Part shown: in pieces, positions 1 through 29,123 of the stretch
Layout: the number at the start of each line of letters is the position of its first letter
Position numbering within the stretch: the stretch's first letter is position 1
Source of the DNA: a virus
Strand: one strand, 5' to 3'
Virus record (IMG/VR): IMGVR_UViG_3300036770_005682
Span: 32,001-96,000 of that record
DNA length: 64,000 bases
Notes under the pieces: generated by a model
The model's input: the letters and a program-made list of their open reading frames with translations, nothing else
Databases searched by the model: none
What the model was told of the DNA's origin: nothing
Translations under genes and position numbers: made by a program

Positions 1-3000
1 TACAACGGCGCTTGGATTATTGATTGGGCAAATGTTACAAATCCCCAGAATAATCCATTCGTCGACGACATGATAGATGCCGCCAGAAGGTTAAAGAATA
101 CTTCTTATACAGGTTCAAAATTTAGTGGCAGAAAAATAGACCTACAAAACGATTTGACAACGTTCTACGACAATTTGGCTTGGGCGTTTCAAAACAACAT
201 TACTCATGATGTGGGCGACTTAGTAATTATGGCTGCTGCGGTGGGAGGGGAATACGCAACAGTCAATGGCGTCGAGACATCAGCAGAATTTTATGCATGG
301 AGAAGATTGTTCGGCGAACTTAGGGGAAATGCGGCAGCAAGCAGAATGCCAATAGGCAGGGATATTCTCCAAGAGGGTCCTTTTGATTTAACCCCAAGCG
401 ACATCGATTTACGCACAACAAATGCAAGAAACAGCCCTACCGCAAATCTTCTTACACATTTTGCCGCCGCTTGGGCAGTGCAAGAACGTGACCGGGCTAT
501 GCAACCAGGTGGGGCCCTAGACCAAATTCAACAGCAGCTTCCACCTGGCGTAGGTTTGCCACAATCAATCATAGATAACTTTGAACAAAACGCTGCTGCG
601 GATGCTGTCGCTAGATTGAATCAAGTTGGGCAATCATCATTTGGCGTCAGCCCAACGGGGTGGAACATATCTGGGCGCATGGGGAACATGCAGGGACCAA
701 ACGACCGCCCGCAAACATTGCATGCTCGTAGAGTCAGGAACGCTGTTCGTTCGTACGACGCCAATAAGACAAGAGTAAAAACAAGCTTTAGCATCTCTGG
801 ACGCATGGGGACACCAGACCCTGTAAAACCGCAAAGACCGCGAGAGCCAGATAATGGTCCATTCACTGGAAAGTTTCTTGATGTTCTTCGTGGCGCTTCC
901 ACCTGGAAAGAGTTTGCAAGCAAATACCGCAAACAGACGGTTGTATTTTTTGACTACGAAACGACCGGATTTGGTGATGATGGGAACATGCCGGTTCAGA
1001 TAGGCGCGGTAAAAATGCGCGGCGGTAAAGTTGTAGAAAGATTTAACGTTTTTGTTAACCCCGGTATCCCACTTGGCGACTGGGCAAAAAAGAATTTGAA
1101 AAATGATAAAGGCGAGCCACTAACCGATGAGTGGCTAGCATCAAAAGCGGGAATGCGCCAGGCCCATGAACAGCTGCTTGAATTTTTTGGCGAAGATGCG
1201 CTGTTAGGTGGGCAATATACGCCATTTGACCTAGAAGTACTAGAGCGTATTCTCAAACAAGAAGGTATTGATTACAAACCAGCCGGTGTAATTGACTCAA
1301 AAGCGATGGCTGACGAACTACTTCCGCGATGGTCTCCCCAAAATCCCGATGGCCCAACAATGGTTGACCCTAAAACAGGAGAGAAAAAAGCATCAAACTC
1401 TCTTGGACCATTAGCCGAATATCTAGAGGTCGACCTCGGGGATGGCTGGCATACTGCAGACGCTGACTCTGAGGCATCAGCAATGATTATTGAGAAGATG
1501 CTAGATAGGGCAGCGTCTAAGCAAGACACATCAAAACGGCTATTGGACGTAGACCAAGTCCCACGAATTGTCCAGGAACGTCGCGCGAAATACGAGCGCG
1601 ACATGGCTGATTATCAAAAGGCAAAGGCAGAATACGACCAGCTTATTTCTGGCCGTATGGGTGTTGTGCAGTTTGAAACTGCTAATGGCTCTGTTTACAC
1701 AAGGCAAGCTGACGGCAGATTCCGTCGCAGAAAGAGCGCAGTGCTCGGCACGACCATAGAAGATTCTGACGTTGAGTCCACCTTTGACAACACCGTATTT
1801 GTTAATGACAATGACGCGTATGCAATTATGGCCAAAGGACAACGTGGCCGGATAGTAGACGACAGTGGGAATTTGATTGGTCGCATATATGACGACACTA
1901 ATCTAGATAGTTCTAAATTCATGTCTCTTCGTCGTGATGGAGACGATTTTGATACCGCTTATAGAAAAGCAGGCGGAACGATAAAAGATGAAGCAATCCC
2001 GGCAGCACGCATATACAGGGAACCACAGACCGGTTTAGCCCCAATTGAGTGGAACAACGCAGACAACAAGTACCACGTAGGAAGCAGTGTTTCGTCCGTG
2101 ACAACAGAGCCATCTACGTCTATATCTGGAAGAATGGGAAATCCTGAGCGCGCATCGAAAGCAAAGACCGCACAGGTAAAAGAAGTTTTGTCGACCACAA
2201 AAAGCTCTGTCGGAGCAAACATGAGCGACGAATACGTAGATAATTGGGAATCAATAGAACCGCGACTCAGTGGAGAATTGGGCATTAGAAAGCCACTCAA
2301 AAAGGCAGAAGCTAGAGCCCAAAGCAGCGAAGCAATGAGACGTTTTGGTTCAATGTTGCGAGACTCAATCGGCAACGAGAATAAACCGGCACAGCAGACT
2401 CCATACAGCCCTCTGTTTGCTGGCGTCGAATTAGATTTTATGGCTCACATTGGCTCAATGACTGATGAAGAAATTGAAAACGAATTAGTAGATGCAATGA
2501 CTGAGTTCCATGCTGGACTCGACCCACGCCCTAGGGTGCAAGTATGGCAGGGAGATTTGACACGCATACTGCAACACGGGTATAAAACGACACACAACAT
2601 CACCAGTGACCACAGTTCTAGCCCAATGCGTAAAACGTATGAAGCAGAAATTGGCATTCATCCTGATTTCCCAGACACGATGAGACCAGCTTCAGGATAC
2701 ATGGTTCATTCTGATTGGCTGAATGCTGAAGAAACTATTGCCTCTGCCGCAGTGGAGGCGCTCCCCGGAGCTGATGAAGAAACAAATTTCCCCGAATACA
2801 TGGATAGAAAAGGCATAGAAGACCACCGTGGTCCAGTTAGCGTATACGGAGGAGCGGAAATAATTCTTAGACCGGAGACATCAGGACGCACATACTACGG
2901 GTATGGAGACTCGTTGTCAATGAGATTCACGCCAGTGTCTATAAATTCCACTGACCCAGATGAAATAGTGCGCCCTATGGCCATGGGTGGGACAATAGCC

Positions 3001-3600: not shown

Positions 3601-3920
3601 AAAAGTCACTAGTTGGCAAAACTAGAGATGGCGGAAAGTTGTTTTTCGTGTCAGGAGGCCGCAGTACAGGGATATTCCAAATTGGCAGAACCATGACAGA
3701 AATCAACTTCTGGGATTTTGTTGACAAGAGGCCTGACCTAGAAGAGATGATGATAACGCCAATGCAGAAAAGGCTTTGGTCAAGAAATATCTCAGACCCT
3801 CAGTGGGTTGCGCAGTTCATGCCGGCGCATTGGAGAAAGCGGGAAGATGAAAACCCATACAACCAAAAAGTTAGCCAGGCATTAGATACAATAAGAACAA
3901 CGACAGATTTGCTGTTCTAG
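3597..3920 (+). CDS. Small hypothetical protein, translationally coupled to the giant ORF (candidate immunity/partner)
   Basis: 107-aa ORF with ATGA overlap on the upstream stop. Confidence 0.65.
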   Translation: MKKSLVGKTRDGGKLFFVSGGRSTGIFQIGRTMTEINFWDFVDKRPDLEEMMITPMQKRLWSRNISDPQWVAQFMPAHWRKREDENPYNQKVSQALDTIRTTTDLLF

Positions 3921-3948
3921 TATTACGAATGTCGCATAAGGACCGCCA

Positions 3949-4593: not shown

Positions 4594-6628
4594 TTGCTGC
4601 GATGAAAAATCGCTGACACCAATTGTACAAACACGTCATGTAACGCCAGAGTTGGCGCTTACACACGTAAACGCATTCACCCAGCCATTGCCCAAAGATG
4701 GCAATTATAAAAATGCTGTAATGTACAAGTGTGCTATGCAGCGTCGAGGCGGACGAGTAAATCTAGAGGTAAAAGTCGGTTCGGTGACATCGACTAGTCC
4801 TGTTTTGCAGGGGCTTCAATCTGTCGGCTCAATGATTATCCCCGGAGATACGGCACCACTCAGAAGCCCTCTTCGCTCAGGGCTGGCTAGGGCCATAACG
4901 CCTGGCGGCGGCAGAGGAATTAATCCGTTTGCCTATGGTAAACCCAATCGCGGATACAGATGTCCAGAGGGTTACCAATATGGTGGACGCTTTACAGATT
5001 CCAGATTCTCAACATGTGGAAAACAATTGTTTGACCTTCCTGGGATAATTGGAGCAGCAATCGGCACAGCAATTAGACGTTCTGCCGCCGGTGTCGCCAA
5101 TTTTGAACCAAGCGGACGTCGGGTTGGGGCCCTATCCGTCTCTGGTGACATTATCCAAAGTCGCGCACCGCAAATTCCTAAAGTTTCAGCATTAAATAAG
5201 CGCGACAGAAACGCTAATATCGCATCTATTGTTGCTGCTATGGCCGGTGTTGCCGAACCATACAGAAGAATGGTCCGTCGTGATGGTTTCGTTCTTGAGC
5301 CAGTAGTAAGCAACGCAGTACTAAGAACAATCCCAGACAACAGGGATATGGAAGGTGCAACATTTGTTCAGACTGCCCTGGATAGAGCAGTTATAGGGAA
5401 AGATGAACTTGGGTTGCTATCCAATACTGGTGTCCAAAAGCTTGTTTATGTTTTGCCTGGTGGCTCGACGCTAAATATAGAAAAAGCGCGCCCATTAACA
5501 GTTGGCGAACGACGCAAATTGGGCAAGACGGTTAACGTAGCCATTAATGCAGAAAACAATTCTGACCCAGCATCTAGGTTGCGTTTCGTTGCAGAGCAGA
5601 TGGGCGATGCTATTGCCTACAGCGAGTCCTTTAACGACATAAAGGACCCCAATGCAATAATTACAGTGACGTTGCCTGGCACAAAGCGGAAAACTCAACT
5701 GAAGAGATGGGTTTACGAATCGTTTTATAAGCGCAAGCCAGACGTTCCAACCCCTTCAGAAACTGAAATAACAGAAGGCGATTCAGTAGGGCCAAGCGAA
5801 AAAATCGACAACCTTTCGGGGGCAGTGAGGCACCTCAATGCTGGAGGCTCACTAGAAAACATATCCAGCTCATTGCGGGTTGAAGCACTGAGGCGGAGCA
5901 GGCTTTACAAGAGTGGAAAACTCAAAGAGGGCGTAATCCTTCATGAGCGCGCAGATGGGCAAACCGTATTCGAAATACGTCCGAAGCGAGATTTTGAACA
6001 TATTGGGGCTTCGGTTGCTTCTGAGGTGCAACGTTCGTTAGGCCTGAGTGCGCCAAAAGTAAGATTGTCTGGCTCTGGAAATAGGAGAACCTATCTTATA
6101 GGGGAAGCGCAGGATACGCCAATTGCCGGTTCACAAAATAGAGCAAGCGGTTTAGAAAATGTTGCTGTGGAGGATTTGGTTGGACTAGCTGTCGCAGACT
6201 GGCTTTTGGACACTCACGGCAGAACTCCGGCAAACATTTCTCCTATAAATATATCTGGAGCCATGAGGGCGGTTGCATCGATTAACCCGATGTCTGGAGG
6301 AATATCTGCAAGAGGCAATAACAGGCAACGTTTCGACATAGACATGAACGATTTTTTCGGACAAGAATTGCGCGAAATGTACCGTCGCAATTTCGAAAAA
6401 CTAAAACTTGAGCAGAGGCGCAAGGCTCTCAACATGATTGCAACATATATAGAAAGAGCTCAAAATATAGATTTCCCAGAATTGCGCAAAAGGCTGAGTC
6501 TCGACGGTGAAATGTCCGAAGCAGAAAAGCGACACCTTTCTATTATTGAAACACTGTTCAATAGAAGACTAGAAACACTGAGAACATCCAGAGCCGCATT
6601 CATGTCTGCACTAGGATTGCGGCAGTAA
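4562..6628 (+). CDS. 688-aa virion-associated protein; RCPxG..GGRFT motif and degenerate HipA/PI3-4-kinase-like C-terminal domain
   Basis: SEVQRSLGLSAPKV...ADWLLDTHGRTPANI resembles the DxLxxNxDRHxxN kinase loop without the catalytic Asp. Confidence 0.55.
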   Translation: MRQMKTVSLSNCCDEKSLTPIVQTRHVTPELALTHVNAFTQPLPKDGNYKNAVMYKCAMQRRGGRVNLEVKVGSVTSTSPVLQGLQSVGSMIIPGDTAPLRSPLRSGLARAITPGGGRGINPFAYGKPNRGYRCPEGYQYGGRFTDSRFSTCGKQLFDLPGIIGAAIGTAIRRSAAGVANFEPSGRRVGALSVSGDIIQSRAPQIPKVSALNKRDRNANIASIVAAMAGVAEPYRRMVRRDGFVLEPVVSNAVLRTIPDNRDMEGATFVQTALDRAVIGKDELGLLSNTGVQKLVYVLPGGSTLNIEKARPLTVGERRKLGKTVNVAINAENNSDPASRLRFVAEQMGDAIAYSESFNDIKDPNAIITVTLPGTKRKTQLKRWVYESFYKRKPDVPTPSETEITEGDSVGPSEKIDNLSGAVRHLNAGGSLENISSSLRVEALRRSRLYKSGKLKEGVILHERADGQTVFEIRPKRDFEHIGASVASEVQRSLGLSAPKVRLSGSGNRRTYLIGEAQDTPIAGSQNRASGLENVAVEDLVGLAVADWLLDTHGRTPANISPINISGAMRAVASINPMSGGISARGNNRQRFDIDMNDFFGQELREMYRRNFEKLKLEQRRKALNMIATYIERAQNIDFPELRKRLSLDGEMSEAEKRHLSIIETLFNRRLETLRTSRAAFMSALGLRQ

Positions 6629-9600
6629 TGAAATCTATATCGCTAGTTAGAGACAAGATTGACGGCTCTCCATTTGCTGTATTGCTTATCAACAAAGATG
6701 ATGTAACTGCATTCGGGTCATCTGGCCAAGGAAAAAATTGGGCCGATTGGGTAAATAGTCAAAACACTCAATTTGACAGCATTGATGACCTACTTGATGT
6801 AAGGCTAATTGCTGATACACCTGTACCGGCAAAAACGTTCAATGAAAGCAACCTGAGCAGCTATTTAGACCAGGAAAACATGGACCTGGTTATGCAGGAG
6901 CTGAATAAAAAAGTATTGCTAGAAGTAGTCAATACTAAATCAGCACAGCAAGAAGAGCCAATATTCAATGACGAGGAAGATGACTTACCAGACTTCATTC
7001 CGATGTCAATGTGGCCACTTTCTGATATTTCCCTTGCCTCGATAGATGTTGCATTTAAGTCAAATCTTGCAGCCTACAAAGCAAAGGCATTCAACCTAGA
7101 TAGAGACAGGCGAGCAATAGAGCTCGAGGTTAAATGGGCTCGTGCTATTTGGGACAATGACAGACAAGGGTGGCGCTGCCCACCAGAAACCCCTAATGGT
7201 GGTCAGTTTACCAACCGAATGGGCCTTGGATGCACAACAGGAATGATACGACGCCTTGGCCAGACGTTGATGAGCATCGAGGACCGCAACAAACTTCAAA
7301 TGACACTTCCGGGCCTTGAAGACCCACGCGGATTTCTATACAGAGCTGGAGCTCTGATAGATGAAAGAGCAGAGACGCGAGTAAGGAAATTTGCTGAGCG
7401 CAAAGAGCGTAGAGCAGCAAGGCGAGTTCGTAACATAATCGCCAAAGAAGGGAAAAAAGAACAGGAAAAACTGCAAAAAGAAAAGCGCCGCCATAATAGG
7501 TCTGGTGAATCAATAGGTGACATCTACAGAAGCCTTACTCCAGATGCAACCAGAACATCGAGAGTCCGCGCTGCCGGCGCAGTAAAGCTACGTAGATTTG
7601 CAGCACGAATAGAAGAAGAATCGCTTAGGGACGTAGGTCAAAGTCAACAGCGTCGTGACCGCAGAATGAGAGCTGTCACTGAAGAGCGTCTCAGCCCAAG
7701 AAAACTAAAACAATTACGCGACCAGGGCGGAAGAATACCCGGCTCCGACCTTGGTGGATATGTCCAAATGGACGTCAAGAGCGATGACGAAACATACAGG
7801 GCGATGGACGTCAATGGACAACTTATGGTGCCACGTGTCCTTGTGGACATGGACGAAATGCACTCTAATCCATTCTATGGTCGCCCAACATTGAAGGATG
7901 ACACAGGAAAAGAAATACCAAACCCACATGTTGACCATAAGTGGGTCACGGTTGAAGAAGTTCTCGCCATGTCATCTGTTAACCGCGCAACAAAACCAGT
8001 TCACGACTGGATTGAGATGCGCAAAGGACGTGGCTTTCCCGGTGATGAAACAATCAGCTACGTAGACGCCAAAGAATTAAAAAAGATACAAAAAGAGAAC
8101 GGCAGTATTGGCGTTAGGGTAAAGCTAAAAGACGACGGTAAAGGCACGTCTGCTGGGCGCGGAAAAGGAAAAGCAAAAACTAAACCGGCGCAAGGTGGCC
8201 CAATAGGTGATTTGGAGTGGCAGCCGGACGAGCTACCGCCGACGACTGCAAAGCAAATCCGCGACTCCTGGAGGGAAAGCAGAAAGCGTCTCGGCTCATG
8301 GATAGCAAGTCTCGACCCTTTGTCAGAGGACGACGGGAAAACACGTCGCGAAAAACGAAGAGAAAAACGCTCTAAAGCAAACAAGCCTGTTAGTGCAGTA
8401 ACTGCGGATGGATTTTGGTCCTCACTTTATCCCGATATCGAATCCCCGATTGAGGCTATGGATAGAGCAAGAGAAGCAAGCAGCGCTTCTGACAGCTTCA
8501 GGCAATGGTTTGAATCTGGTCAGTCGGGGAACTCACGCCGCTGGGGCTATAACGAAGTAATCGGAACTCCAACGCCGGAATTTGCCGCTTTTAAACGACT
8601 AGCCGACGGTGTTATTAGCGAACACGGAGGAGAAGTTCTCGTCGAAGGACCAGATTCAGGACACCCCCTGCGAAACGAGCTAGACAATAATTTTGAATTC
8701 AATACTAACTACAGAACATCATCTCCATTTCAACTTTACAACCTACGAGTCGTCACGTTAAATGATGGCGTAGAAGAGCGTAAAGTAATAGTTCTCGACA
8801 CGGTGTTTGCTAATGCTTGGACGGATAATCCACGAGATGAAAACAATAGACAATTAGACCCTACAGAAGCAGGTGTCCTACAACTTGCAACAAAATCAAC
8901 AGTTCTTGATGTTCCCCAAGATATTGTCGAACAAGCGGAAAAAGGAGATATGCGCGTTTGGGACTTTCTCGAAAGTGCAAACTTCGCGTTAATGTCAGGA
9001 CGACCAGGAACAACTCCAGGAAGCGTGTGGCTCGGATTCCCCCCAGCAGATGGAGCGCAAAACTTCGGCGGCGACAGGGTAATACGGTTTAATAAACGAG
9101 GAGCACCACTAAGCATTGCTTCTGGCTACCACGCAAGGAGCAATACGCCAAACCTTATCGGCGTAAAGACAGTGCACCTTGGCGGTACTAGCAATGCAAC
9201 AATAGACCTCCGAACTGGAGCAATGATTTCTGGTCGCATGGGTCCAGAGACGATACTTACACCAGATGGAGAAAAAGTACTTGATGACCCATCAATAAAC
9301 CCATTTACTGGCGAAAAAGAAAAAATGTGGATAGACAGGCTACCTGGCGCACGCAGGGGACGAAAGTCTCGTCGCCGCGTCGTCGGAGATAGGCCAGAAC
9401 AACCAGGAATAATCAGCCGCGTTGCCACAGCAGAGGGGCGACAGTTCTCTAGAGAGCGTCGAGCCGCCAGAAGAATGATTAAGGGCAAGACGCCTAGGGA
9501 CACAAGACCGCTCCGCCAGAGAATTGAAGCATCTTTATACGAGCGTTCACGTAGACGTACTGGCGATATCCGTCCGGAATGGCTACAGGCTCCAGATATA

Positions 9601-14393: not shown

Positions 14394-14395
14394 AC

Positions 14396-18190: not shown

Positions 18191-18411
18191 ACGAACTATT
18201 TGCAGAGGGTATTGGAGGGGGTGCCAAAATGTATAAAACCCATACTACATTTGTTGGAGATAGCCCTATCTACTTCGGGTACATCCTGAAAAATGGACAA
18301 AAAGGTGGAATAATTAATTTGTCTTCCGTTGTTGCCTCCAACCCTTCCTGGAAGGTTGTGGACGAATTTGCTACTACTAACGAACCTCTAGAAAACCCTA
18401 GAAATCAATGA
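18187..18411 (+). CDS. Small hypothetical protein (candidate immunity/partner)
   Basis: 74-aa ORF overlapping both neighbours by ATGA. Confidence 0.6.
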   Translation: MNELFAEGIGGGAKMYKTHTTFVGDSPIYFGYILKNGQKGGIINLSSVVASNPSWKVVDEFATTNEPLENPRNQ

Positions 18412-21400
18412 ACGAAAATAACGATTTACAATTTGATGAAAAGGACATACTTGGCGCTCCACGGATGGTGCGCGTCACGGACCCAGATGTTTTTTCAGAC
18501 CCAGACTCAGCGCGAGTAGCAGCTAGGCGCTTGGGGTGTATTGGAATCAGAAGATACTTAAACCGTTCCGGCGGTGAGTCATGGATGCCGTGTACAAACG
18601 AATCAGACTACAGAAAATACAGCGGCATAGGTGTTTCTGGAAGAAGATTTAGACGTCAACAGCTAGAAAGAGAAATACGTCAAATAACCGGCCGTGGCAA
18701 ACTAGCAAAAAAGACTATCGATTCTGCTGTAGAAACAAAAGCATCCAAGGCGAACAACTACACCAAACCCGAACTGCGCGAACGCCTCAAGCAGCGTATT
18801 ATGGCTGGTTCTGACGGAGGTGCACCTGGTCAGTGGTCTGCGCGCAAGGCACAAATGCTGGCTCAAGCGTACAAAAAAGCTGGCGGTGGATATAAGACTG
18901 GTGGAAAATCAAAAACGCAGCGTTCACTTTCTACATGGACAAAGCAAAACTGGCGAACAAGCGACGGCAAAAAAGCCAGACGAGGAAACTACACAAGGAG
19001 ATACCTCCCAGCTAAAGCGTGGTCAAAACTAACACCAGCGCAAAGAGCTGCAACGAATAAGAAGAAAATAGAAGGCTCAAAACAAGGTGAGCAGTTTGTG
19101 CCTAATACTGCCGCTGCTCGCTCCGCAAGAAAGCGGTCTGTTCGCGGGGCAAAACATTCTGCTTTTTATGAACTTCTTGAAATAAAAAGCATAGAAGGTT
19201 TAATAGAAGTAAAAGCCTTGCCTAGAAGAGCTGCCAGAAGAACACTGCAAACACCAGGCGCACTAAAGCCGCGCCTTAACTCAATGGGGAGAGACCTCAA
19301 CCCCGCTACGGCGCGAAACGCCGACAAAGACCCGTATGTTCTTGAAGGAATCCCAACAATCAACCGTGGGCGAGGCGTTCTTGACCCCACGCCTGGAGGA
19401 AAGCCAAGCCGGTGGGTTCCTCGCGTAAGAAAAGCGCCTTCCAAACCTGAAGTAGCTCCAGAAGCAAAGCCTGCACGTGTTTTACAGAGACAAGCAGAAC
19501 GCCTACCAAAACCACCACAGACACAGCGGCGAGAGTCTTCTTTCGATTGGCTACCTTCAGATTCAGATACATGGACAGAAGAAAACAAGAGACGTCTATT
19601 CGGGTTGCATAAAGAATCAGGGTTTTCTTACTCTGAGTTTGCTAAACGAAATGGTTTATTCGCGGACGACGTACGTGAGTCTGTCGAGACCATAAAGAAC
19701 AAGCGCAAGTCACGGCTCAACGCATTCAAGAAAAATCACCCCAAGTTGATGTCCGTAATTGGTTCGTTTGGTGCCGTGCGAGATGAAGCCATGGAAGCTG
19801 TCGCAGACGGAAAAGTAAAGGATTGGCCTTCCGTTGTGTCATGGGCATTCAAGGACCCCGAACTACGCCGCCAGCGTCTTTCAGACAGAGCAGTTAACGA
19901 CCTTTTCAATAGTGTAAGTAATGGCCTTGACCCCGATGGCAAGTCAGACACTGTTCTCGGATTTATACCCTCTAAAACAAAACCAGGAAAATCTGTTAAA
20001 ACGTTTGCAAAGCGTGGAGCACTCCCCCCAGATTTCACCAGTAGATTCACAACACGCAGAACAGCAGTAGCGCCAGCAAGAAGCATTACATCTATACCAG
20101 AAAGAGCGATACGCCGCCCAGAACGACGCATACAGCGAATTAGTCGCGATATCGAGCGCACGGCGGCAGCATACGAACGTCTTGATGCGATATCGGGTCG
20201 AATGACATCAATATCCGGGCGTATGGCTACGCCCCCTGGCCCAGACTCATCATGGTCGAACCAGCAAAAAGCTCAATGGAAAGCAGAGCAATGGCGGAAA
20301 CGATTCCTATTTGACGAAGCGTTGAATTCAGCAAGAGTCAATCTTTCACCAGAGCTTCAGGCGCACATTGCTAAGTATCCAGATACAGCCACTGCGGCAC
20401 GAGCGATAATGGATATGTCCGACAAGGACCTAGACGCACTGTTCAAGGCTCATAATGATGCACTCAAGGGAGCCAACATAACCATTAAGCCACCTCGTAG
20501 AGATGAGCTCCCTCTTCTGCCGTCCGAAGTGGCCGAAGCAGCCCAAATCAAACGCCCATTGGTTAGAGCATTCCTTGATGAATACAGGAAAATGGCACCG
20601 AACGGAACACTGTCGAGGCTCGATGTCGACACAATGTCAAATGAAGACGTCGAAGAAATGTTCAACCGCTATATCTTGCCGGAAATGGTTGACCCAACAC
20701 GCTTGGATGCAGCAGGTGTTGTAGACGTTGCGCAGAGAATCTCCCAGCCAGGTCAGGAAAATTCCCCTCTCCGTCTGTTGGACAATCTCGCCTACATGGC
20801 CAGCGACGACATGATGAGCCTAGAAGCTCGACGCAGGATTTTAGAAGAACGACTGAATGCTGGTATTGCGGCTGGAACAATGACTCCGGCGCAGCAGCAA
20901 GCTACGCAAAATGCTCTAGACGCAATAGACATGGAACTAGCGAAACTAGTTGCCGATTACGAGGCAGGTCAGCCGCTAGATACATCAATTCCATTTATCC
21001 CTGAAAACATACCTGACCCACGCAAAATGCCTCTCTGGGCTGGGGGACGTCGAGCCCTGGATTTCAACGACCCCGTTACAGCAGAAGATTACGTCATGTT
21101 CCTTCTAGAAAACGACGACGTAGGATTTCACCCTGAGTGGGGCCCCATAACACGCCAGGAATGGAACAACTGGGATGAAGATATAGAACAACGTATACAA
21201 CGAGCAGTCGAAGTGCATTACGAGGGTGGCGAGCTAGAAGCGGAAGATGCAATGAACGCTCTCACGGCCGAATACCAACAATGGTACAACGTTGGCATTG
21301 AAGCAGGCTGGATTGAAGGACAAGAAGAAGAAGAGCCACAACCCGAAAGGCCAATACGAGACGAATTTGGTGTACTCGATGAAGACTGGGTTTGGAATAC

Positions 21401-24400
21401 TGAATTTGGTTCACCCGAAGAGCTCGGCGTCACGGATGACCCATCAACATGGGCTCTACATCCGGACAACGTGCAGGATGATGGTGTAACCCCAATTGAG
21501 TTAGATGAACTTGAGCAGCTCATACTTAAATATGCACCGCGTAAATTTCAAGCCGACTTACTTGAAATGCTCAAGCCAAGTGAATGGACAGACCCTCATA
21601 GTGGCCACATTGACCAGCGCTATGTTGACCTGCCTCCAGAAATGATTGATTATTTTGTTGCTCAGGCTATGGGCACAATGCCACCTATGCCATCCGGTTC
21701 AGGAAATTTACCCACACCGAATATGGGCGGCGTCCAAGGAGATGGAGTAGGAATTTCAGACCCTGGCGGTCCGCGTCTGCGTCGCGGTATACCGTTTATA
21801 CCCAGAAACATAAACTGGGATTCAGCCTTGCGAATGTTCAAACGAATTATCGACAGACAGGGAACTTCTGCATCTGCTCCAGGTTCGTATCGCACCGCAT
21901 CGCTACGTTATGACCCAGCACTTGGTGTATATGAAGACTGGGGACCACTTCAGCTGCAAAACCAGTTTGTTGAAGCGGCTAAAGCAGCAAGAGAACTATA
22001 TGTATCGGGCACTGGGCAAGACTCACGGAAAGCAAGAGAGCAGGTATGGAACCTTCTCCAAGCGGGCAGAACCCCAGAAGAAATAGGACATGAGCTAATA
22101 ATCTTTGGAGCAGACCAGCCAGATACAAATAGGCCGCCACAGCCACTGGATGTATCTGACCTTGTGAAAGCCGCAGCGACAGCGTATGCAGTTGAAAACA
22201 ATCTCCCAGTTGCTGATGTTTCCAAAATGCTTAATGCAAATGCTAAAGCGTTCAATGCTGACGCTACACGCCAAGAAACTCTCCGCCGCTCACAACTGGA
22301 AAGGCTTCGTGCTGATTTAGATAGGCTTCTCAGTGGTCAAAGCATGGACCAAATTATCAAGTCCATTGACGGTTTGATTGAAGAAACAGAACGTAAGAAA
22401 TGGTTTGCTGACCAGGCCTACAGAATTGAGCGCGGCCATGACGCGCGACTACGGAAAGCTATTCTGGACCTAGCGGAAATGTACCCATTGCCTACGGCAC
22501 GCCGCCAAATATTTATGGAGCCAGACGGCTCTATCACTGGTACACCTTCGCGAAACTCAAGGACGTTGTACCAAGAGCCATACACGGGCGAAATATCGGC
22601 TGACGCAAATCTTGGCTGGCCATTAGCTTTTGATGAAGGTTATGACCCCACAAAAATTACTAGGGCTAGGCAGGCTAACAGAATTTACAGATGGTGGCGT
22701 CAGAACTGGGGCTATGTTGACCGCGATGAAAATGGTGAAATAATTCGTCAGTATGTTGGCCCGCTCCAGGGAACGTTAACTGCTCACCAAACTCACGCCA
22801 GAAAATATGGCAACGCGGGTCTATCTGGCACAACAGCATACGCAACCAAAACAGCTGATGCTCGAGTTAGGCAGCTAAAAGAAGTACAAAAACTTCTCAG
22901 TGAAGCCCGCCGCGAAGGCCGCAACTTTAACATCAGTGGATACATGCGTAATGCTGGTCCAAATCTTTATGAGTCATATTCACGCAATGCTGCGCGCTCA
23001 CTAGTTGCTGGGCGTAAAAATAAAAAATCTGCATCAATGCTTCTTGGTTTTGATTCAGAAAACATGCCTGTGACAAGAGCTATGAGGATTGCCTTCACTG
23101 GTGGTTCAGGAAAATTTAGTGATGCCGAAAATATGCATTCTTTTGCATCAATAATGAATCCAGAAAACATCGATTACTTTAATCACCTTTCTCCGGTAGA
23201 AAAAGATTATTTTAGGTCTCTTTATTCTGACGCTGAATTCGTTGTAGCCGTACCTCGAGACGCTGCAGTTTCGGCCAGTCGTTCAATTCGCGGGAAAGAC
23301 GGACTTACACCAGATGAAAAGCTAAGTCAGGCTTTCTATAAAGCAATGTCAGATACACGCCCAACTATTTCTGGACAGATGGGACTTAAGAGAAATCTGT
23401 CAAAAGCAAGGGGAATGGCAAGACGCAACCCTGAGTTGTGGCAGCGCCGCTACATGACTGCGCGTAATAGCTTCAGGATGGCGACGCCATTTAGACGGAC
23501 CACATTGCAAAACTATGACCTAGAACTCAGGCAGGTTGATGACAGCGTGTTTGGGCCAATTTCGGGTCTCTACCTTGTTGATAGAGCAACGGGAAATGTA
23601 ATCGATGGCCCATACAAATCAACGGAATTGATGTCGGCTGTGGATGCAGGCCGTGGCGCCATGAGGAAGGTCAAGGAACAAAATTATCCTCGCCCATGGG
23701 AGCAAATGCCGGAAATACAGAAAGCAATTGCATATGGCGTATCCAACGAAATGCGCGATTTCCTGACTCTCGATGCATATAAGTTGAGCGACATACGCAG
23801 TACGGTAAATGAGAGAGCTCTATCCTTGGATAAGGGCATTCCACAAGAAGCAGCAGATACCGCCGTATTTAGTCGTGACCCAGATACTAGCGACCTAATG
23901 GTTCTTATGATTCAGCGTGAATGGGGACCACATAAGGACGACACGGGCGCATGGGTACTGCCTGGTGGTTTCTCCGACCCAGGTGAAACATCACTAGAAA
24001 CAGCCATGAGAGAGCTCGCAGAAGAGACTGGGATAAAACTTCCAGCAGAGTCTTCCGACCCACAATGGTGGACGACAGAAGGTGCTAAAGCTTTCCGCCT
24101 CAAGCAAATAGGCACAATAGAAGCTCCAGACTGGGATGTGCGATTTACCAAAGGTGTAAAAGTTGGAGGCGCAGCATTGTTTGTATCTCCGGACATAGCG
24201 TTCTCGGCGGGGGATGATGCACGCAGGGCACAATGGATTAGTGTTCGCGACATTGCTGATGGCAAGATACCAGTTGGCTTCGGGCATATAGCTTGGATAA
24301 AGAACGCTTTGGGCCTAGAAAAAGATGACCCAGACGAACTTGATAGCGACCTTACGGACATTGGCTCAAAGCTGGAAAGAATAGAGCGCGCGACTAGAGC

Positions 24401-27400
24401 AAGAAACAAAGAGCTCATAGAAATATCGAATGACTGGCGTAAAAAACTCAACGCAAGTCGCGATAAAGATAATCAAATACCGCTATTCGATGAAAAAAAT
24501 CTTGGCTCCTACTCATCTTGGGAGTTAATACCATCCGATGACCTGATGTACATGGGTGCATTGTCCAAGCTCAAAGTGACAGGAAAACCGCATTCAGATG
24601 CTGACGTAAAAGCAGAAGTGGAGCGAACACGTGAAGTTCGCTTAGGCAGGGTTGGAACGAATTTTGGTCCATCCATATCTGGCCAAATGGGCAATATCGG
24701 ACCGGTCGACATCTACAAAATGCACATATCCGGCAAGACCTCAAACGACATATCTGAATCACTTCCCAGTACAGAAGCAATGCTTAGAGCAACACTGGCT
24801 CTTGGTATGCCGCTCAGTAAAGAGAGCCACAATATTAATCCCCAGGATGAACGAATTTTTCTTTCATCTGCTGTTCGTGGAGAGAATATTGCCGACATCG
24901 CGAGAAGAAACAACATGTCAGTGTCGGAAGCAAACAGTGTCGTCCAGAATTTCGCAAAAATGCGTGAATCTACGGAACCGGCAATCAATAAATCTTTCCG
25001 CAAAGCAATAAAACAAGACAAAAAACTTTCTGGAGCAGAAAAACAAGCCCTTACTCGTCGCCTTAACGGCGCAACAGTCAAAGAAGCGGCCGACTTCCTC
25101 GGTGTAAAGGAAGATGCTTATATACGGCGAGAGGCAAAACTGTTAAACGCCATTCGCGAATCGAATCCTAAAATGTTCAAATCGAACGGAGCCTGGTCAG
25201 ATAACCCACGCGCCCTGGCAGTAGACCAGGAAATATTTATGCGCTTTGTTCATGATGGCCAGCCAGCCTCACGTATAGCAGGCAACATGGGCATGACCGA
25301 AAAGCTTGTGAACAACATTGTCAAGCGCTACGCAAGATGGAGAGACTCCAATGCGCCAATTGAAACAAGCTCTATTAAAAACGCATTGCTCCGTCATTCG
25401 GATTCTTTAACTCCTGGCGAAAATATATTAATGAGTCGCATAGCAGATGGTGAGTCTGTATATGACTTTGCGAAGCGGACTAGAATGCCACGTAAAAGCG
25501 CTGAGCGTATGTATAACTCAGCAATGCTCAAGCTTCATATTGAGTCCGGTGTTGCTCCGAGCTCCAGGGTATTTAGCGCAAACATTTTCAAGGCTGCTCC
25601 AAAGCGTTGGATTTCGCCAATTATGCCAGCAGATATTTTGGCCAAAAAACCAAAAATATCTGGGCGCATGAGTAATAACGACAAAGCTATTTCAACCATC
25701 AAAGAATCTAATGCGTTTAACGAAACGGAACGTGGATTTGTTTCTGCGCCAATGAATGTTTTACGTGAAATGGCTATTGATATACGTCAGGAACTTCGCG
25801 ACCAAGTTGCAGATTTGTCACAAACTTCAGCAGAAATGCATCCGGTGCTCGGAGGGCATGAAGGCGTAAAGAAAATGGCGACACTGGGTGCATATATATC
25901 CAGGACACTAGAAGAGTCTCGTATTTCGGCATTGCTAGACGAATACAAGAGCGCAAAAACAAAATTCATATCGCGCGAACGAAGAGAGTCGGTCGAAAAG
26001 CAGGCAATACTTGACGCAACAAAAAAGCTTTCGGAAGAGCTATGGCTTAAAAAGCAATTTATGGATTTGGCGTCAAACATCTACGACGCTTATGAAAGAG
26101 CATCTTGGCCATGGTTGAAATGGGACAAGTCAAGCCCTGAGTGGAAACGACATTTAGGTGTCTTTGAAACAATGGAAATGTACAAAATCGACACTCCTAG
26201 CGGCAGAAGAAAATACATCAATGATGGCTATTACATGCCGCTGAACCCACGAGAAATGGAAGCATTCCTTGATGCTGTTAATACAAACAACGGCATTACT
26301 GGAAGGATGTCCAACCCGCGCCAATGGGCACGCTCTAGAGACCTATATGAAATCCTTGGTGTTCCAGATACTGCAAGCCCTGAAGATTTAAAGAAAGCTT
26401 TTAGGACAAAATCCAGGGAACTGCATCCAGACGTTAATAAGCGTGCTGACGCAGATGAGCAGTTCAAAGAGCTTGGTTTTGCTTGGGAAACTCTAAGTAA
26501 TTCGAGCCTTAAAGCTCAATACGACTCCTGGAGAACACGCAATGCATCTGGAGCTGCTGCTGACGGCGAAGTAGATAACTTTGAAGAAGATGCCAACTTT
26601 AAAGTCGACGACAACATGTACATTACGGACGAGCGTGGCCGACTATGGCCGCGTCATAATGCAAATAGGGACGACTGGCCGACAGTTCCATTTACAGAAA
26701 ATACAGTGTTCCCGCAGCGCAAATGGGCAGAAAAAGAGTTTGACGAATGGTCGGATTGGACAAGCCACAAAATACAACCATCGAGACCAGCCGGAAGTGC
26801 CCTATGGGGAGAGCGTGGCCCTGGCGACGACATAAGAGATGGTATCGAAACTGACTTTGGTGGAGGAGGCGGTGGGTTCCCAGAGGGCTTCATGTATCGA
26901 GAATCACCAGAGGAATTCGAGAGGCGACTAAGAGATGAATTTGAGAAGCGGCTAAGGGATGAGGGTGCTCAGTTTTGGGATGAGCGGACAATGGGCCCTC
27001 CCCCACGGCCTGATGATTTTCCTGGACCCCCTGGCTTCCCGTCACCTGAAGGGTCTATCAGTGGCAGGATGAGCAATTTCGCCCCACTAGATGACACTAC
27101 GAGGCAGCGTCTCGGTATAGGGGACCTTCCAAGTCTTTACGACCAGCAACAGCTAACTGCGCAATACCCCAAAGACACCGCCATGTTTTATGCTGCTAAG
27201 CCGGGAGAACCAGCAATAGAGGTAACAACAACATTTGGCGGGAAACTAAACCTGGCGCAGCATAGATACGACAACGTATATAGGCCAATTATTGACGCAA
27301 TGATAAATGCAGTCCGCCAAAATAATCGTGGACGTAAAAGGTTCATATCGGTAGGTGGCCCTGCCGGTTCGGGTAAAACAACTGACAGAAAAACTGGCGC

Positions 27401-28796
27401 TCACGGCATACCAACAGTGGAAAATGCCCTCCATGTTGATGCTGACGAGATAAAAACTCTAATACCTGAAGCCAGGGCACTGCATGCCGCAGGAAACCCA
27501 CAATGGGCTGGAGCAGTGCATGAAGAATCAAGAATCATTGCTGACCTTGCTCTTCAAGAAGCAATAGCAAATGGTTTAGACGTTGTATACGACTCAACGG
27601 GTCAGTACAACTCTGGTTTTGGAACGTTGCAGGCTGCACGCAATGCTGGATACGACATTGTTATGCACTACAACACCGCAGAGCCAGACGCCCTTGCCGC
27701 AGCAATTGAAAGCCGCTCGCAGACAGATTCGCGTCGCCTACCATCTGGCTTTAACAATGCTGTTATGCAACGCAATAAGACAATTATGCCTAGTGTTGCT
27801 AAAGCCGCAGATGAGTTCTATTTGTGGGATTCATCTGACATAAAATCACGCAAATTGCTGGCCCAAAAGCAAACTCCACAGTCAATGCTTCAGATAATGG
27901 ACCCGAACGCATACGTTTATGGAAGCTTCGATGAAGCAGGCCAAGCAATAACCAAGGGTGGCAGGCCAACTGCCCGCCTTAACCAGTACAGATATGCGGC
28001 AGAGAGCCCTGAAGGACGAGCAATTCAGGCTTTTGAAAATGGTTCAACAATTGACCAAATATCTGAAACAATGCCCGATATGAAGCGCGACAGAATATTT
28101 GATGTTGTCACCGGAGGGGTAATTGACCCATCACTCCAATACAGGCCGCCAGTATCACCATCACAAAGGCCTGCAATCAACCCAGAAAAGAAGATTGATG
28201 ACTTCGTATCTGATGACAACCTTGAGAATATATGGAACAGCCTGGAAGAAGCACAACAACAAATCGTAAGAAATGTTCTCAAAAAACAACCAGGCGCTAT
28301 GGACGAGTTTGATGATTCGGGCCTACCGATGGACATAATTATCTGGGCCGCGCAAAACAATATCAGTGGGAGAATGGGCGCTGTCTACGATAGAGATAGA
28401 TATAGCGCCGATGATGTGAATAATGCAATTCTTGAGGTTTATGGTCGTGGCCTACAGGCTGCAGAAATGCTCGAAACGCTCAAGAGCGAGTACGACATTT
28501 CAATGGCTCGGGCAGACCTAACAGCACGAATCACCAGACTGAGAAAAGCTGGCAAATTAGACACTTATCGTCTTCCGAATAAAAAGAAAACAGCAAGACG
28601 AATAAAGAAAAGCGCAACTCAAAAATTTGTTGACAAGCGAGATAAGCAAATAGTTCGTTTAGCCAAAACAAGACCCAACCTAACAGCGAACCAGATAGCT
28701 CAAATAATCAACAACATGCCTATTCCTCCGGGAGTAGCAGTGCAGCCAATGAGTGCTAGTTCCGTGTCGCGGATAGTAAACAGCAAAGGCAAATAA
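18408..28796 (+). CDS. Giant 3462-aa polyvalent protein: DUF5872-like N-terminal region, Nudix hydrolase, 4 tandem sigma70-r4-like HTHs, DnaJ J-domain, zeta-toxin-like P-loop kinase; 9 ISGRM-type motifs
   Basis: GGAPGQWSARKAQMLAQAYKKAGGGY; Nudix box GGFSDPGETSLETAMRELAEETG (23964-24032); DLYEILGV...LHPDVN (J-domain ~26340-26525); GGPAGSGKT...VDADEIK...HEES...DST (~27350-27840). Confidence 0.85.
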   Translation: MNENNDLQFDEKDILGAPRMVRVTDPDVFSDPDSARVAARRLGCIGIRRYLNRSGGESWMPCTNESDYRKYSGIGVSGRRFRRQQLEREIRQITGRGKLAKKTIDSAVETKASKANNYTKPELRERLKQRIMAGSDGGAPGQWSARKAQMLAQAYKKAGGGYKTGGKSKTQRSLSTWTKQNWRTSDGKKARRGNYTRRYLPAKAWSKLTPAQRAATNKKKIEGSKQGEQFVPNTAAARSARKRSVRGAKHSAFYELLEIKSIEGLIEVKALPRRAARRTLQTPGALKPRLNSMGRDLNPATARNADKDPYVLEGIPTINRGRGVLDPTPGGKPSRWVPRVRKAPSKPEVAPEAKPARVLQRQAERLPKPPQTQRRESSFDWLPSDSDTWTEENKRRLFGLHKESGFSYSEFAKRNGLFADDVRESVETIKNKRKSRLNAFKKNHPKLMSVIGSFGAVRDEAMEAVADGKVKDWPSVVSWAFKDPELRRQRLSDRAVNDLFNSVSNGLDPDGKSDTVLGFIPSKTKPGKSVKTFAKRGALPPDFTSRFTTRRTAVAPARSITSIPERAIRRPERRIQRISRDIERTAAAYERLDAISGRMTSISGRMATPPGPDSSWSNQQKAQWKAEQWRKRFLFDEALNSARVNLSPELQAHIAKYPDTATAARAIMDMSDKDLDALFKAHNDALKGANITIKPPRRDELPLLPSEVAEAAQIKRPLVRAFLDEYRKMAPNGTLSRLDVDTMSNEDVEEMFNRYILPEMVDPTRLDAAGVVDVAQRISQPGQENSPLRLLDNLAYMASDDMMSLEARRRILEERLNAGIAAGTMTPAQQQATQNALDAIDMELAKLVADYEAGQPLDTSIPFIPENIPDPRKMPLWAGGRRALDFNDPVTAEDYVMFLLENDDVGFHPEWGPITRQEWNNWDEDIEQRIQRAVEVHYEGGELEAEDAMNALTAEYQQWYNVGIEAGWIEGQEEEEPQPERPIRDEFGVLDEDWVWNTEFGSPEELGVTDDPSTWALHPDNVQDDGVTPIELDELEQLILKYAPRKFQADLLEMLKPSEWTDPHSGHIDQRYVDLPPEMIDYFVAQAMGTMPPMPSGSGNLPTPNMGGVQGDGVGISDPGGPRLRRGIPFIPRNINWDSALRMFKRIIDRQGTSASAPGSYRTASLRYDPALGVYEDWGPLQLQNQFVEAAKAARELYVSGTGQDSRKAREQVWNLLQAGRTPEEIGHELIIFGADQPDTNRPPQPLDVSDLVKAAATAYAVENNLPVADVSKMLNANAKAFNADATRQETLRRSQLERLRADLDRLLSGQSMDQIIKSIDGLIEETERKKWFADQAYRIERGHDARLRKAILDLAEMYPLPTARRQIFMEPDGSITGTPSRNSRTLYQEPYTGEISADANLGWPLAFDEGYDPTKITRARQANRIYRWWRQNWGYVDRDENGEIIRQYVGPLQGTLTAHQTHARKYGNAGLSGTTAYATKTADARVRQLKEVQKLLSEARREGRNFNISGYMRNAGPNLYESYSRNAARSLVAGRKNKKSASMLLGFDSENMPVTRAMRIAFTGGSGKFSDAENMHSFASIMNPENIDYFNHLSPVEKDYFRSLYSDAEFVVAVPRDAAVSASRSIRGKDGLTPDEKLSQAFYKAMSDTRPTISGQMGLKRNLSKARGMARRNPELWQRRYMTARNSFRMATPFRRTTLQNYDLELRQVDDSVFGPISGLYLVDRATGNVIDGPYKSTELMSAVDAGRGAMRKVKEQNYPRPWEQMPEIQKAIAYGVSNEMRDFLTLDAYKLSDIRSTVNERALSLDKGIPQEAADTAVFSRDPDTSDLMVLMIQREWGPHKDDTGAWVLPGGFSDPGETSLETAMRELAEETGIKLPAESSDPQWWTTEGAKAFRLKQIGTIEAPDWDVRFTKGVKVGGAALFVSPDIAFSAGDDARRAQWISVRDIADGKIPVGFGHIAWIKNALGLEKDDPDELDSDLTDIGSKLERIERATRARNKELIEISNDWRKKLNASRDKDNQIPLFDEKNLGSYSSWELIPSDDLMYMGALSKLKVTGKPHSDADVKAEVERTREVRLGRVGTNFGPSISGQMGNIGPVDIYKMHISGKTSNDISESLPSTEAMLRATLALGMPLSKESHNINPQDERIFLSSAVRGENIADIARRNNMSVSEANSVVQNFAKMRESTEPAINKSFRKAIKQDKKLSGAEKQALTRRLNGATVKEAADFLGVKEDAYIRREAKLLNAIRESNPKMFKSNGAWSDNPRALAVDQEIFMRFVHDGQPASRIAGNMGMTEKLVNNIVKRYARWRDSNAPIETSSIKNALLRHSDSLTPGENILMSRIADGESVYDFAKRTRMPRKSAERMYNSAMLKLHIESGVAPSSRVFSANIFKAAPKRWISPIMPADILAKKPKISGRMSNNDKAISTIKESNAFNETERGFVSAPMNVLREMAIDIRQELRDQVADLSQTSAEMHPVLGGHEGVKKMATLGAYISRTLEESRISALLDEYKSAKTKFISRERRESVEKQAILDATKKLSEELWLKKQFMDLASNIYDAYERASWPWLKWDKSSPEWKRHLGVFETMEMYKIDTPSGRRKYINDGYYMPLNPREMEAFLDAVNTNNGITGRMSNPRQWARSRDLYEILGVPDTASPEDLKKAFRTKSRELHPDVNKRADADEQFKELGFAWETLSNSSLKAQYDSWRTRNASGAAADGEVDNFEEDANFKVDDNMYITDERGRLWPRHNANRDDWPTVPFTENTVFPQRKWAEKEFDEWSDWTSHKIQPSRPAGSALWGERGPGDDIRDGIETDFGGGGGGFPEGFMYRESPEEFERRLRDEFEKRLRDEGAQFWDERTMGPPPRPDDFPGPPGFPSPEGSISGRMSNFAPLDDTTRQRLGIGDLPSLYDQQQLTAQYPKDTAMFYAAKPGEPAIEVTTTFGGKLNLAQHRYDNVYRPIIDAMINAVRQNNRGRKRFISVGGPAGSGKTTDRKTGAHGIPTVENALHVDADEIKTLIPEARALHAAGNPQWAGAVHEESRIIADLALQEAIANGLDVVYDSTGQYNSGFGTLQAARNAGYDIVMHYNTAEPDALAAAIESRSQTDSRRLPSGFNNAVMQRNKTIMPSVAKAADEFYLWDSSDIKSRKLLAQKQTPQSMLQIMDPNAYVYGSFDEAGQAITKGGRPTARLNQYRYAAESPEGRAIQAFENGSTIDQISETMPDMKRDRIFDVVTGGVIDPSLQYRPPVSPSQRPAINPEKKIDDFVSDDNLENIWNSLEEAQQQIVRNVLKKQPGAMDEFDDSGLPMDIIIWAAQNNISGRMGAVYDRDRYSADDVNNAILEVYGRGLQAAEMLETLKSEYDISMARADLTARITRLRKAGKLDTYRLPNKKKTARRIKKSATQKFVDKRDKQIVRLAKTRPNLTANQIAQIINNMPIPPGVAVQPMSASSVSRIVNSKGK

Positions 28797-28978: not shown

Positions 28979-29123
28979 TTGTTATTTCTATTAATACTTC
29001 CACTACAACGGATATTAGGTTTGGTACATTAGGTATCAGGACACAGGAGCTGGGTGCTTACCTAAGCAGATGTATCTGACCCATAATCCAAAAATCCAAA
29101 ACTTCTACAAGGAGAAAATCCAA

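Follow-up and report, generated by a model that had tools for sequence, protein, structure and literature searches.

Why does one short peptide recur between the modules of four giant proteins encoded close together in the head module of a tailed phage? The question is raised by IMG/VR virus record IMGVR_UViG_3300036770_005682, a single 137,811-bp contig whose bases 32001-96000 were analyzed as one stretch of 64,000 nucleotides (hereafter, the window). The giants, termed gA, gB, gC and gD, are encoded between the gene for an S78 prohead protease and the gene for the major capsid protein, and the peptide is Ile-Ser-Gly-Arg-Met (ISGRM). According to the best explanation, this peptide, in general form [IVL]-[ST]-G-x-M-(small) and here I-S-G-R-M-(G/S/A), would be a cleavage signal located in the flexible inter-module joints of the giants. 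A phage protease would read the signal in trans and cut the giants into ~21 pieces, including DEDDh exonuclease, Nudix, helix-turn-helix (HTH), J-domain, zeta-like kinase and ADP-ribosyltransferase (ART)-like modules as well as others. The most likely reader would be the S78 (HK97-type) prohead protease, acting like T4 gp21 or the phiKZ and SPN3US proteases. A probability of roughly 0.45 is assigned to this explanation as a whole, i.e., a cleavage signal, cutting in trans and S78 as the most likely enzyme; the broader idea that the peptide is a protease-cleavage code of some kind is judged probable from the comparisons described below.

Occurrence of the ISGRM Peptide

A six-frame scan of the window, then of the whole genome, finds 13 exact ISGRM copies, all on the + strand and all inside the four large open reading frames (ORFs), at the positions listed in an earlier reading of the same DNA (the initial annotation). 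No further copy occurs in the six frames of the 137,811-bp genome, including the part of gA upstream of the window. The variants listed with them, ISGYM (22932), ISGQM (23367 and 24675), ITGRM (26295) and ISGAM (6251), are present as well. The first three of these peptides are counted together with the exact copies as 17 sites (13 ISGRM, one ISGYM, two ISGQM and one ITGRM), and ISGAM is left out.

The excess over shuffled expectation that the initial annotation had anticipated is large. In the 8,945 amino acids (aa) of the giants, the composition predicts 0.006 copies of ISGRM against the 13 observed, and 0.14 copies of I[ST]GxM against 17. In 2,000 shuffles the maximum is a single ISGRM, and in 300 shuffles the commonest 5-mer of any kind reaches at most three copies. 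When the looser pattern [ILV][STA]GxM[GSAT] is used, 17 matches are found in 8,898 aa of the giants vs. five in the 33,203 aa of 146 other genes (greedy-called, outside the giants); three of these five lie in the tape measure protein (see below).

Codon usage in the 13 copies is heterogeneous, as had been noted for this window: Ile is encoded by ATA (7), ATC (3) or ATT (3), Ser by TCT (8), AGT (2) or TCA, TCG and TCC (1 each), and Arg by CGC (6), CGT (2), AGA (2), AGG (2) or CGA (1), so that the two codon families of Ser and the two of Arg are all represented. As synonymous codons differ between copies, conservation is at the protein level and selection acts on the peptide; the same variation of the Ser and Arg codon families rules out internal translation starts and a DNA-level role of the ATG. 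The residue after Met is small (G, S, A or T) in 16 of the 17 sites, in agreement with the initial annotation, and the residue next to it is Asn in 9 of 17.

Three further peptides of similar form were rejected as sites. ISGAM at 6251, in the 688-aa protein encoded among the giants, had been listed as a possible variant. It lies in a conserved ungapped block and is not kept as a motif, four relatives reading ISGSM, VRGKM, IDGQI and VGGRM, and is therefore regarded as a chance match. ASGYM in gA likewise lies in a conserved ungapped block in which the motif is not kept in relatives, and IEGRM before HEAGH in gA, which is located in a conserved block or helix, is not kept in relatives either.

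Positions of the Sites in the Giant Proteins

gA (1,713 aa; + strand) starts at genome position 30459, 1,541 nt upstream of the window, and its 3' part occupies window positions 1-3600. It contains four ISGRM sites, at 667-681 (aa 737), 793-807 (aa 779), 1645-1659 (aa 1063) and 2122-2136 (aa 1222). Its recognizable modules are an HExGH-containing region (aa 470, upstream of the window) and a DEDDh exonuclease, of which the aa 779 and aa 1063 sites form the N-terminal and C-terminal borders, respectively. The exonuclease is identified by a match to RNase_T (5.9e-10) and by a match to the DEDDh fold (Z 15.0; root-mean-square deviation 3.6; 188 residues aligned). gB (2,459 aa; 6628-14007, + strand), an ORF with no match to a Pfam or PHROG family, contains one ISGRM site, at 9226-9240 (aa 867); an Atlas search with its aa 871-2459 gives no usable match.

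gC (1,264 aa; 14396-18190, + strand) contains three ISGRM sites, at 14702-14716 (aa 103), 15206-15220 (aa 271) and 16604-16618 (aa 737). Its parts are, in order, an N-terminal piece bearing a linear tag (see below), a module named for its sequence HFDWWMFP, a middle module and a DUF3626 module, the match to DUF3626 (1.5e-05) being below the cut-off. gD (3,462 aa; 18408-28796, + strand) contains nine sites and Nudix, HTH, J-domain and zeta-kinase-like modules. A tandem pair, ISGRM-TS-ISGRM, is located at 20190-20225 (aa 595 and 602), and an atypical ISGYM at 22932-22946 (aa 1509). ISGQM precedes the Nudix module (23367-23381, aa 1654) and recurs between the Nudix and HTH modules (24675-24689, aa 2090). 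An ISGRM at 25656-25670 (aa 2417) is followed by ITGRM before the J-domain (26295-26309, aa 2630), and two ISGRM sites stand before and after the zeta-kinase-like module (27057-27071, aa 2884, and 28362-28376, aa 3319, respectively). Pfam identifies NUDIX (3.2e-12), DnaJ (2e-18) and Zeta_toxin (1.9e-20) in gD, and the HTH_23 and Sigma70_r4_2 matches are both below the Pfam cut-off.

Several unrelated effector-type domains thus share a polypeptide, with four kinds in gD, RNase_T in gA and the sub-threshold DUF3626 in gC. When the Pfam positions are compared with the sites, the RNase_T, NUDIX, HTH, DnaJ and Zeta_toxin domains all lie between sites and none spans a site, which bears out the earlier observation that the motifs bracket the named domains without interrupting any of them.

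The same arrangement appears in predicted structures. Two AlphaFold2 models were built, one of gC aa 1-1200 from a 27-sequence alignment (mean predicted local distance difference test score [pLDDT] 64.5) and one of gA ORF residues 290-1100 from 12 sequences (mean pLDDT 66.8). Each of the six sites that the models cover lies in a segment of pLDDT below 50 bordering confident domains, in line with the prediction that they would map to linkers. In the gC model these segments are 1-113, 272-283 and 737-764, which hold the aa 103, aa 271 and aa 737 sites, respectively; in the gA model they are 452-518, which holds two sites (aa 737 and 779), and 778-811, which holds the aa 1063 site. The gC aa 103 site lies inside a wholly unstructured N-terminal region of 113 residues, and that at gA aa 1063 is close to where the modelled piece ends.

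Conservation of the Sites and Lineage-Specific Forms

Relatives were collected from IMG/VR (341 stretches by the capsid protein and at least 597 by the S78 domain), and the portal-to-capsid regions of five of them, G001-G005, were compared with that of this genome (G000). G001-G004 share its architecture and keep 17, 17, 12 and 11 of the 17 sites at aligned positions, respectively, and the flanks of the kept sites are gap-rich and variable by substitution. Kept in all four relatives are the sites at gA aa 779 and 1063, gC aa 103 and gD aa 1654, 2090, 2630 and 2884, and all four have a site at the position of the gD tandem pair. The sites at gA aa 1222 and gD aa 3319 are kept in three of the four, and that at gA aa 737 in G001, G002 and G003, not in G004; those at gB aa 867 and gD aa 2417 are kept only in G001 and G002. 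The atypical gD aa 1509 site has an aromatic residue at x and a basic residue after Met in all five genomes.

Deeper alignments reveal which positions are constrained. At the gA aa 779 site, Gly and Met are invariant in 12 sequences. Among 27 gC homologues of 35-66% identity, drawn from a collection of 5.8 billion proteins, G105, G273 and M275 never vary, and at least 90% retain G739 and M741; in homologues P0010-P0017 an extra module is inserted directly after the aa 737 site. Overall, the motif has the form [IVL]-[ST(A)]-G-x-M-(small), in which Gly and Met are near-invariant and position 4 is the least conserved (R, K, A, S, Q, F, Y or H). When all sites of a genome are considered, 14 of the 17 here have R at x, as do 13 of the 18 sites of G001. 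K takes this place at 8 of 15 sites of G002, and G003 has A or S at 14 of 18, together with a change of position 2 from Ser to Thr at 16 of 18. Concerted change of x at many unlinked sites is as expected for one co-evolving, trans-acting reader. These comparisons support the view that the motif is a selected signal at module borders which would be read in trans.

The initial annotation had proposed that a sequence-specific protease cuts capsid-packaged precursors at ISGR/M. The junction signal in this proposal holds up on comparative grounds, and the packaging of the giants in the capsid and their ejection would follow from gene position. The R|M bond is not supported: as R is the least constrained position, with Gly and Met near-invariant, cleavage there is unlikely. 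A bond after the invariant Gly, preceded by a hydrophobic-x-small context, or one between the invariant Met and the small residue behind it agrees better with the alignments and is more plausible. Cleavage, the enzyme, the bond, the timing and the packaging and ejection of the products are all predictions of this kind.

In addition to the form found here, other junction peptides are found in relatives, and four classes are distinguished: A, [IVL][ST]GxM; B, LSSG; C, EAGM; and D, PVGxM. The class B peptide (e.g., in G005) is [RK]-L-S-S-G-[RKA]; the class C peptide, G-[DP]-x-E-A-G-M-[AS], is present in eight copies in one 3,523-aa protein; and the class D peptide, G-P-[VI]-G-x-M-[ASG], occurs ~19-21 times, spread over three proteins, in a complete genome of 174 kb (G006). 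Of the residues in these peptides, Gly alone is shared by the four classes. Close relatives thus appear to use distinct dialects (ISGRM, I[ST]GKM, ITGAM, PVGxM, EAGM and LSSG). In classes B-D, the S78 domain is the N-terminal module of the motif-bearing polyprotein, which is 2,947-3,534 aa in length; fusion to a motif-bearing chain is found only in these classes, and the S78 protease of this genome is encoded by a separate gene. Of 10 motif-less loci examined, eight have genes of only 425-1,912 aa following the protease and no recurrent peptide; in motif-less locus L156 the sole recurrent 5-mer is RCP.G, present three times, which belongs to a Cys motif described below.

The S78 Protease as a Candidate Reader

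A protease gene had been predicted to lie upstream of the window, and a Peptidase_S78 gene is indeed found there, at a distance of 3.4 kb (genome 26255-28621), so that the protease and its candidate substrates are both encoded in the head module. The 789-aa product consists of an N-terminal S78 domain and DUF6321, among other regions, as judged by Pfam and PHROG. Peptidase_S78 (PF04586) matches aa 30-175 with 43.6 bits (cut-off 21), and phrog_80, head maturation protease, matches at 8.8e-29. His70 and Ser134, which we take to be the catalytic His and Ser of the S78 family, are invariant in all 20 aligned domains; a PDB profile search with the S78 alignment finds no solved relative by sequence, returning one chance row.

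The residues next to His70 differ between classes. All 13 class A sequences and one class D sequence read HNWNE; class C reads HDWNS and class B HSWND. S78 is the natural candidate because of the analogy with the T4, phiKZ and SPN3US proteases, its fusion to the motif-bearing chain in relatives and this class-varying neighborhood of the active site. As the actual reader, it is given slightly less than an even chance. A complex prediction for the S78 domain with a 60-aa linker containing the tandem site scores 0.02 against a mark of 0.32 and provides no answer.

The initial annotation had also suggested that related phages would carry different motifs covarying with the protease. Different motifs are found, and they cluster on the S78 tree, where the motif classes require seven changes vs. 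a mean of 16.4 after shuffling, with none of 200 shuffles as low. The covariation itself is weakened because the classes are clade-specific.

Between its S78 domain and a conserved C-terminal domain, the protease protein also contains a Cys/Gly-rich stretch (CGCGG.CGG...CGGSCGGSC) and a directly duplicated proline-rich unit of ~45 aa, in the region aa 400-680.

Tape Measure Motifs and Other Evidence against an S78 Cleavage Signal

Several observations weigh against the reading of the motif as a cleavage signal for the S78 protease. The first comes from the tape measure protein (1,698 aa; locus L001; genome 7419-12512, - strand), which is identified by a weak phrog_167 match and carries LAGRM-G (aa 45), IAGAM-G (aa 554) and ISGKM-T (aa 826) in this genome, vs. 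~0.38 expected. Motifs near aa 45-60, 555-600 and 826-854 number three each in G000, G003 and G004 vs. ~0.37 expected. Those of G003 are LTGAM, LSGAM and ITGAM, and in the LSSG-type phage G005 LSSG is present at 42 and 586 vs. 0.16 expected, so that the protein carries the motif of its own lineage. By strict patterns, G001 has only one motif and G002, G006 and G007 have none. The tape measure protein is assembled in the tail, not in the prohead, and is not internal to the capsid. Its motifs therefore fit poorly with a strictly prohead-confined process; if they are real sites, the reader is not prohead-confined, and it would be plausible that processing takes place once the proteins are ejected or that a cytoplasmic protease form carries it out.

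The second concerns the enzyme. The S78 domain is 72-94% identical across lineages with strongly different motifs, and a near-constant S78 domain facing shifting dialects suggests either that a few residues beside the presumed catalytic His set the specificity or that there is a second reader. As the motif classes are clades, any gene of these phages would show agreement with the tree. The peptide SGRMG, which follows DUF6321 in the protease protein, was considered as a self-cleavage site and is downgraded, because GRA stands opposite it in the class C and class D sequences, and its role may instead be structural.

The major capsid protein contains no canonical copy of the motif. It does contain K-[ST]-I-G-[EQ]-M-F (aa 120-126; window 29433-29453), which is kept in six of six aligned capsid proteins and is located where the variable, helical N-terminal region turns into conserved sequence, and which is a candidate for the maturation cleavage site of the delta domain. 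This peptide shares only G-x-M with the motif and is present in the LSSG-type phage too.

The remaining points concern the joints. Several low-pLDDT linkers have no motif, and when 13 large indels that separate orthologous giants are compared with the sites, only six have one within 20 aa of a boundary, so that indel boundaries would provide weak support for module borders. In locus L171 (identical to L172), S78 is N-terminal in a 3,515-aa giant in which no junction peptide is recognized by screening with the four motif patterns and searching for other junction peptides. In the cultured relatives Cantare and ChisanaKitsune, the genes are separate and small and no recurrent GxM peptide is found. 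The L171/L172 polyprotein also contains 12-13 tandem copies of a PEKVP repeat.

Possible Other Readers and Roles of the Motif

The tape measure sites and the near-constant S78 domain lead to the rival that survives best, namely, that the same cleavage code is read by another enzyme or at another time. The HExGH module of gA, which from its sequence may be a zincin-like peptidase, or another protease unrelated to S78, would process the giants and the tape measure protein, possibly after ejection; an ejected protease would explain the tape measure motifs more easily than a prohead-confined one. All 12 aligned gA homologues have HExGH (aa 470; genome 31866) unchanged, and the model places it in a helix within a confident domain of ~450 residues. 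A hidden Markov model of the region matches class A loci only (E<=1e-3), the gA homologue of the class D genome G006 contains HEFGH, and the giants of G005 contain two HExxH motifs. Zincin-like peptidases have been proposed as processors of polyvalent proteins, as set out in the main text of Iyer et al. (2017; PMC5512222). For the module itself, a Pfam search with the HExGH region at E<=10 gives only one unrelated chance row, a PDB sequence search gives no match, and in fold searches (Foldseek, VIA) with the 811-residue gA model the lists are filled by the exonuclease domain. In addition, no HExxH is found in cis in the class C and D polyproteins that are fused to S78, which have 6-10 sites. 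No contrast in presence or absence separates the S78 and HExGH enzymes among the loci. Processing by such a second enzyme is considered unlikely, although it is the first alternative to keep in mind.

A motif that is never cut would also be found in predicted unstructured stretches. It might be a short linear docking or handling element that binds the capsid interior, the portal or a scaffold for loading, or a chaperone or the tail channel during the threading-out of long, partly unfolded chains, and the tape measure protein, whose sole link to the giants is its exit through the tail, would then be marked for the same reason. Other conserved linear tags are present in the giants, and the cargo includes a J-domain module. 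A single docking element in each protein would be enough, yet the motif stands between nearly every pair of recognizable modules, sometimes in tandem, and only in lineages in which the modules are fused into giants. The fusion of the protease to the motif-bearing chain in relatives, as in viral polyproteins, and the small residue that follows Met in 16 of 17 sites, typical of the neighborhood of a scissile bond, further argue for cleavage, and a docking role is held to be improbable.

Recurrence without function, as a relic of linker-cassette duplication or recombination or as a compositional accident, is hardly credible: module shuffling between relatives is clear and sites mark some of the indel boundaries, but 13 copies stand against 0.006 expected, the use of both Ser and both Arg codon families leaves no shared DNA for recombination, the flanks of the copies are unrelated with no extended DNA identity between copies, and the sites persist at 35-65% overall protein identity.

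Comparison with Known Processing Systems

In T4 and phiKZ, head-internal and ejection proteins are matured by prohead proteases, gp21 acting on IPI-III and Alt in T4 and gp175 acting in phiKZ; the T4 motif L/I-x-E and the phiKZ motif S/A/G-x-E are both stable over large distances. Cleavage of the giants by S78, as favored here, would resemble these systems and that of SPN3US in that the protease gene is located in the head module with its substrates nearby, a short consensus recurs and N-terminal targeting pieces would be removed. The differences are considerable. Unlike T4 gp21, the protease here is of the Pfam S78 (HK97) type. Unlike the T4 and phiKZ motifs, the junction peptide lacks Glu, is longer, with 5-6 fixed positions, and differs from one close relative to the next. 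The candidate substrates here are multi-module giants with up to nine internal sites, in contrast to the single proteins with one propeptide that are cut in T4 and phiKZ; the tape measure protein is marked as well, and cleavage is predicted from sequence.

The fold family of S78 also includes HK97 gp4 and herpesvirus assemblin, both of them serine proteases at work within procapsids. Assemblin cuts (V/L/I)-x-A|S, which resembles [IVL]-[ST]-G|x if the bond cut here is that after Gly. The known substrates of assemblin and HK97 gp4 are the scaffold, the capsid protein and the protease itself, not strings of effector modules.

A further parallel is provided by the polyproteins of positive-strand RNA viruses with 3C-like proteases, in which many modules per chain, a virus-specific junction peptide and, as in classes B-D, a protease in the chain are combined. 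Unlike these, the present system belongs to a double-stranded DNA tailed phage, the protease fold is unrelated and its gene is separate in this genome, and the products would be virion cargo, not replication proteins.

For SPN3US, published reports describe the cleavage of head proteins by gp245 and a head filled by ejection proteins (PMC5694885, PMC10052503, PMC7411985). The main text of Iyer, Burroughs, Anand, de Souza and Aravind (2017; PMC5512222) proposes that the domains of polyvalent proteins are released by embedded peptidases, in analogy with RNA-virus polyproteins. The giants described here resemble the polyvalent proteins of that text in combining many unrelated enzymatic and DNA-binding domains beside packaging genes, in the link to Mu F and in their zeta-toxin-like kinase and ART-type modules (PMC5512222). 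The passages compared here name no junction peptide, and the word 'linker' has 0 occurrences in the main text. The paper favors zincin-like peptidases and places assemblin-like ones only at the C-terminus, whereas S78 is separate here or N-terminal in relatives (PMC5512222).

The cutting of head-internal and ejection proteins by prohead proteases, and the predicted release of polyvalent proteins by embedded peptidases, are thus already known. What would be new is that polyvalent giants have a defined junction peptide, that it is associated with an HK97-type protease, that it changes rapidly and in concert between close relatives, and that the tape measure protein carries it too; no description of such a junction peptide was found in the literature searched, and the supplements of PMC5512222 may list related architectures. 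It is tentatively proposed, with the comparisons leaving somewhat more room for doubt than for assent, that a true polyprotein strategy is followed by a large clade of uncultured, WhiB-encoding myophages. Dozens of effector modules would be strung into giants and joined by a private, fast-evolving peptide, a co-evolving protease would read this peptide, and all proteins that exit the virion along with the DNA, the tape measure protein among them, would be marked by it.

Processing of polyvalent proteins has been proposed since 2017 with no known cut site, and a junction peptide makes this proposal directly testable. If cleavage occurs, the motif would be a rule for splitting the unannotated giant ORFs of metagenomic phages into functional units, enabling better annotation of injected anti-host and anti-defense enzymes, and standardized joints would allow modules to be swapped freely. 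Dialects read by a near-constant protease would then be a natural system for studying the evolution of protease specificity and a possible source of orthogonal sequence-specific proteases.

Genome Context and Additional Features of the Head Module

IMG/VR classes the genome as complete, with direct terminal repeats. Three WhiB genes, all above the Pfam cut-off, are located on the - strand at window 35661-35861 and 50298-50495 and at genome 110073-110264; they suggest that the host is actinobacterial and the phage actinophage-like. The tail genes include a sheath gene and the weak tape measure match, and the phage is therefore taken as a myovirus. Among named phages, Brevibacterium phage Cantare and Gordonia phages of the ChisanaKitsune/GMA6 group have the nearest capsid proteins (49% identity); a megablast search of 20 kb of the window against named phages gives no match.

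The head module is ordered as large terminase (opposite strand), portal, S78 protease, an acidic 481-aa protein and gA, followed by three small proteins (one conserved, 688 aa), gB, a 129-aa protein, gC, gD and the capsid protein; the four small proteins among the giants are 107, 214, 688 and 129 aa in length. The portal protein has a C-terminal Phage_Mu_F domain (8.6e-07; 30.1 bits vs. a cut-off of 29.6). The major capsid protein (463 aa; 29070-30461, + strand) has the HK97 fold, with matches to Phage_capsid (1.5e-44) and phrog_10 and a helical, delta-like N-terminal region. Directly after its gene is that of a 140-aa endonuclease (window 30513-30935; phrog_452, 4.1e-41).

The DUF3626 module of gC (aa ~1000-1264; window 17400-18190) has weak Foldseek matches to proteins of the ADP-ribosyltransferase fold. 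For the gC C-terminus these include SopF (E 3e-3; template modelling [TM] score to target 0.37) and DarT (E 0.2-2), and the modelled domain is possibly an ART-like cargo enzyme.

gC and gD have in common a linear tag of ~36-40 aa, NPATAR.AD.D..VLEG.PTIN.GRGV.DPTPGG, detected by BLASTP. One copy lies directly before the first gC site (14597-14701, + strand) and a second from gD aa 298 onward (19299-19403, + strand); the two tag regions are 40.7% identical over 108 aa (E 2e-13). Many residues of the tag are invariant in 27 homologues though it is modelled as unstructured, and copies are also present in four proteins of G006. The tag is a candidate targeting or loading element.

A Cys motif, W..D....RCP..TPN..QFT...G..C (short form RCP..P....F[TS]...C), is common to gA (aa 151; genome 30909, upstream of the window) and gB (aa 183; window 7174). 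A looser copy, YRCPEGYQYGGRFTDSRFSTC, is found in the 688-aa protein at window ~4958, and RCP.G also recurs, three times, in two relatives that have no giants, L156 and L183.

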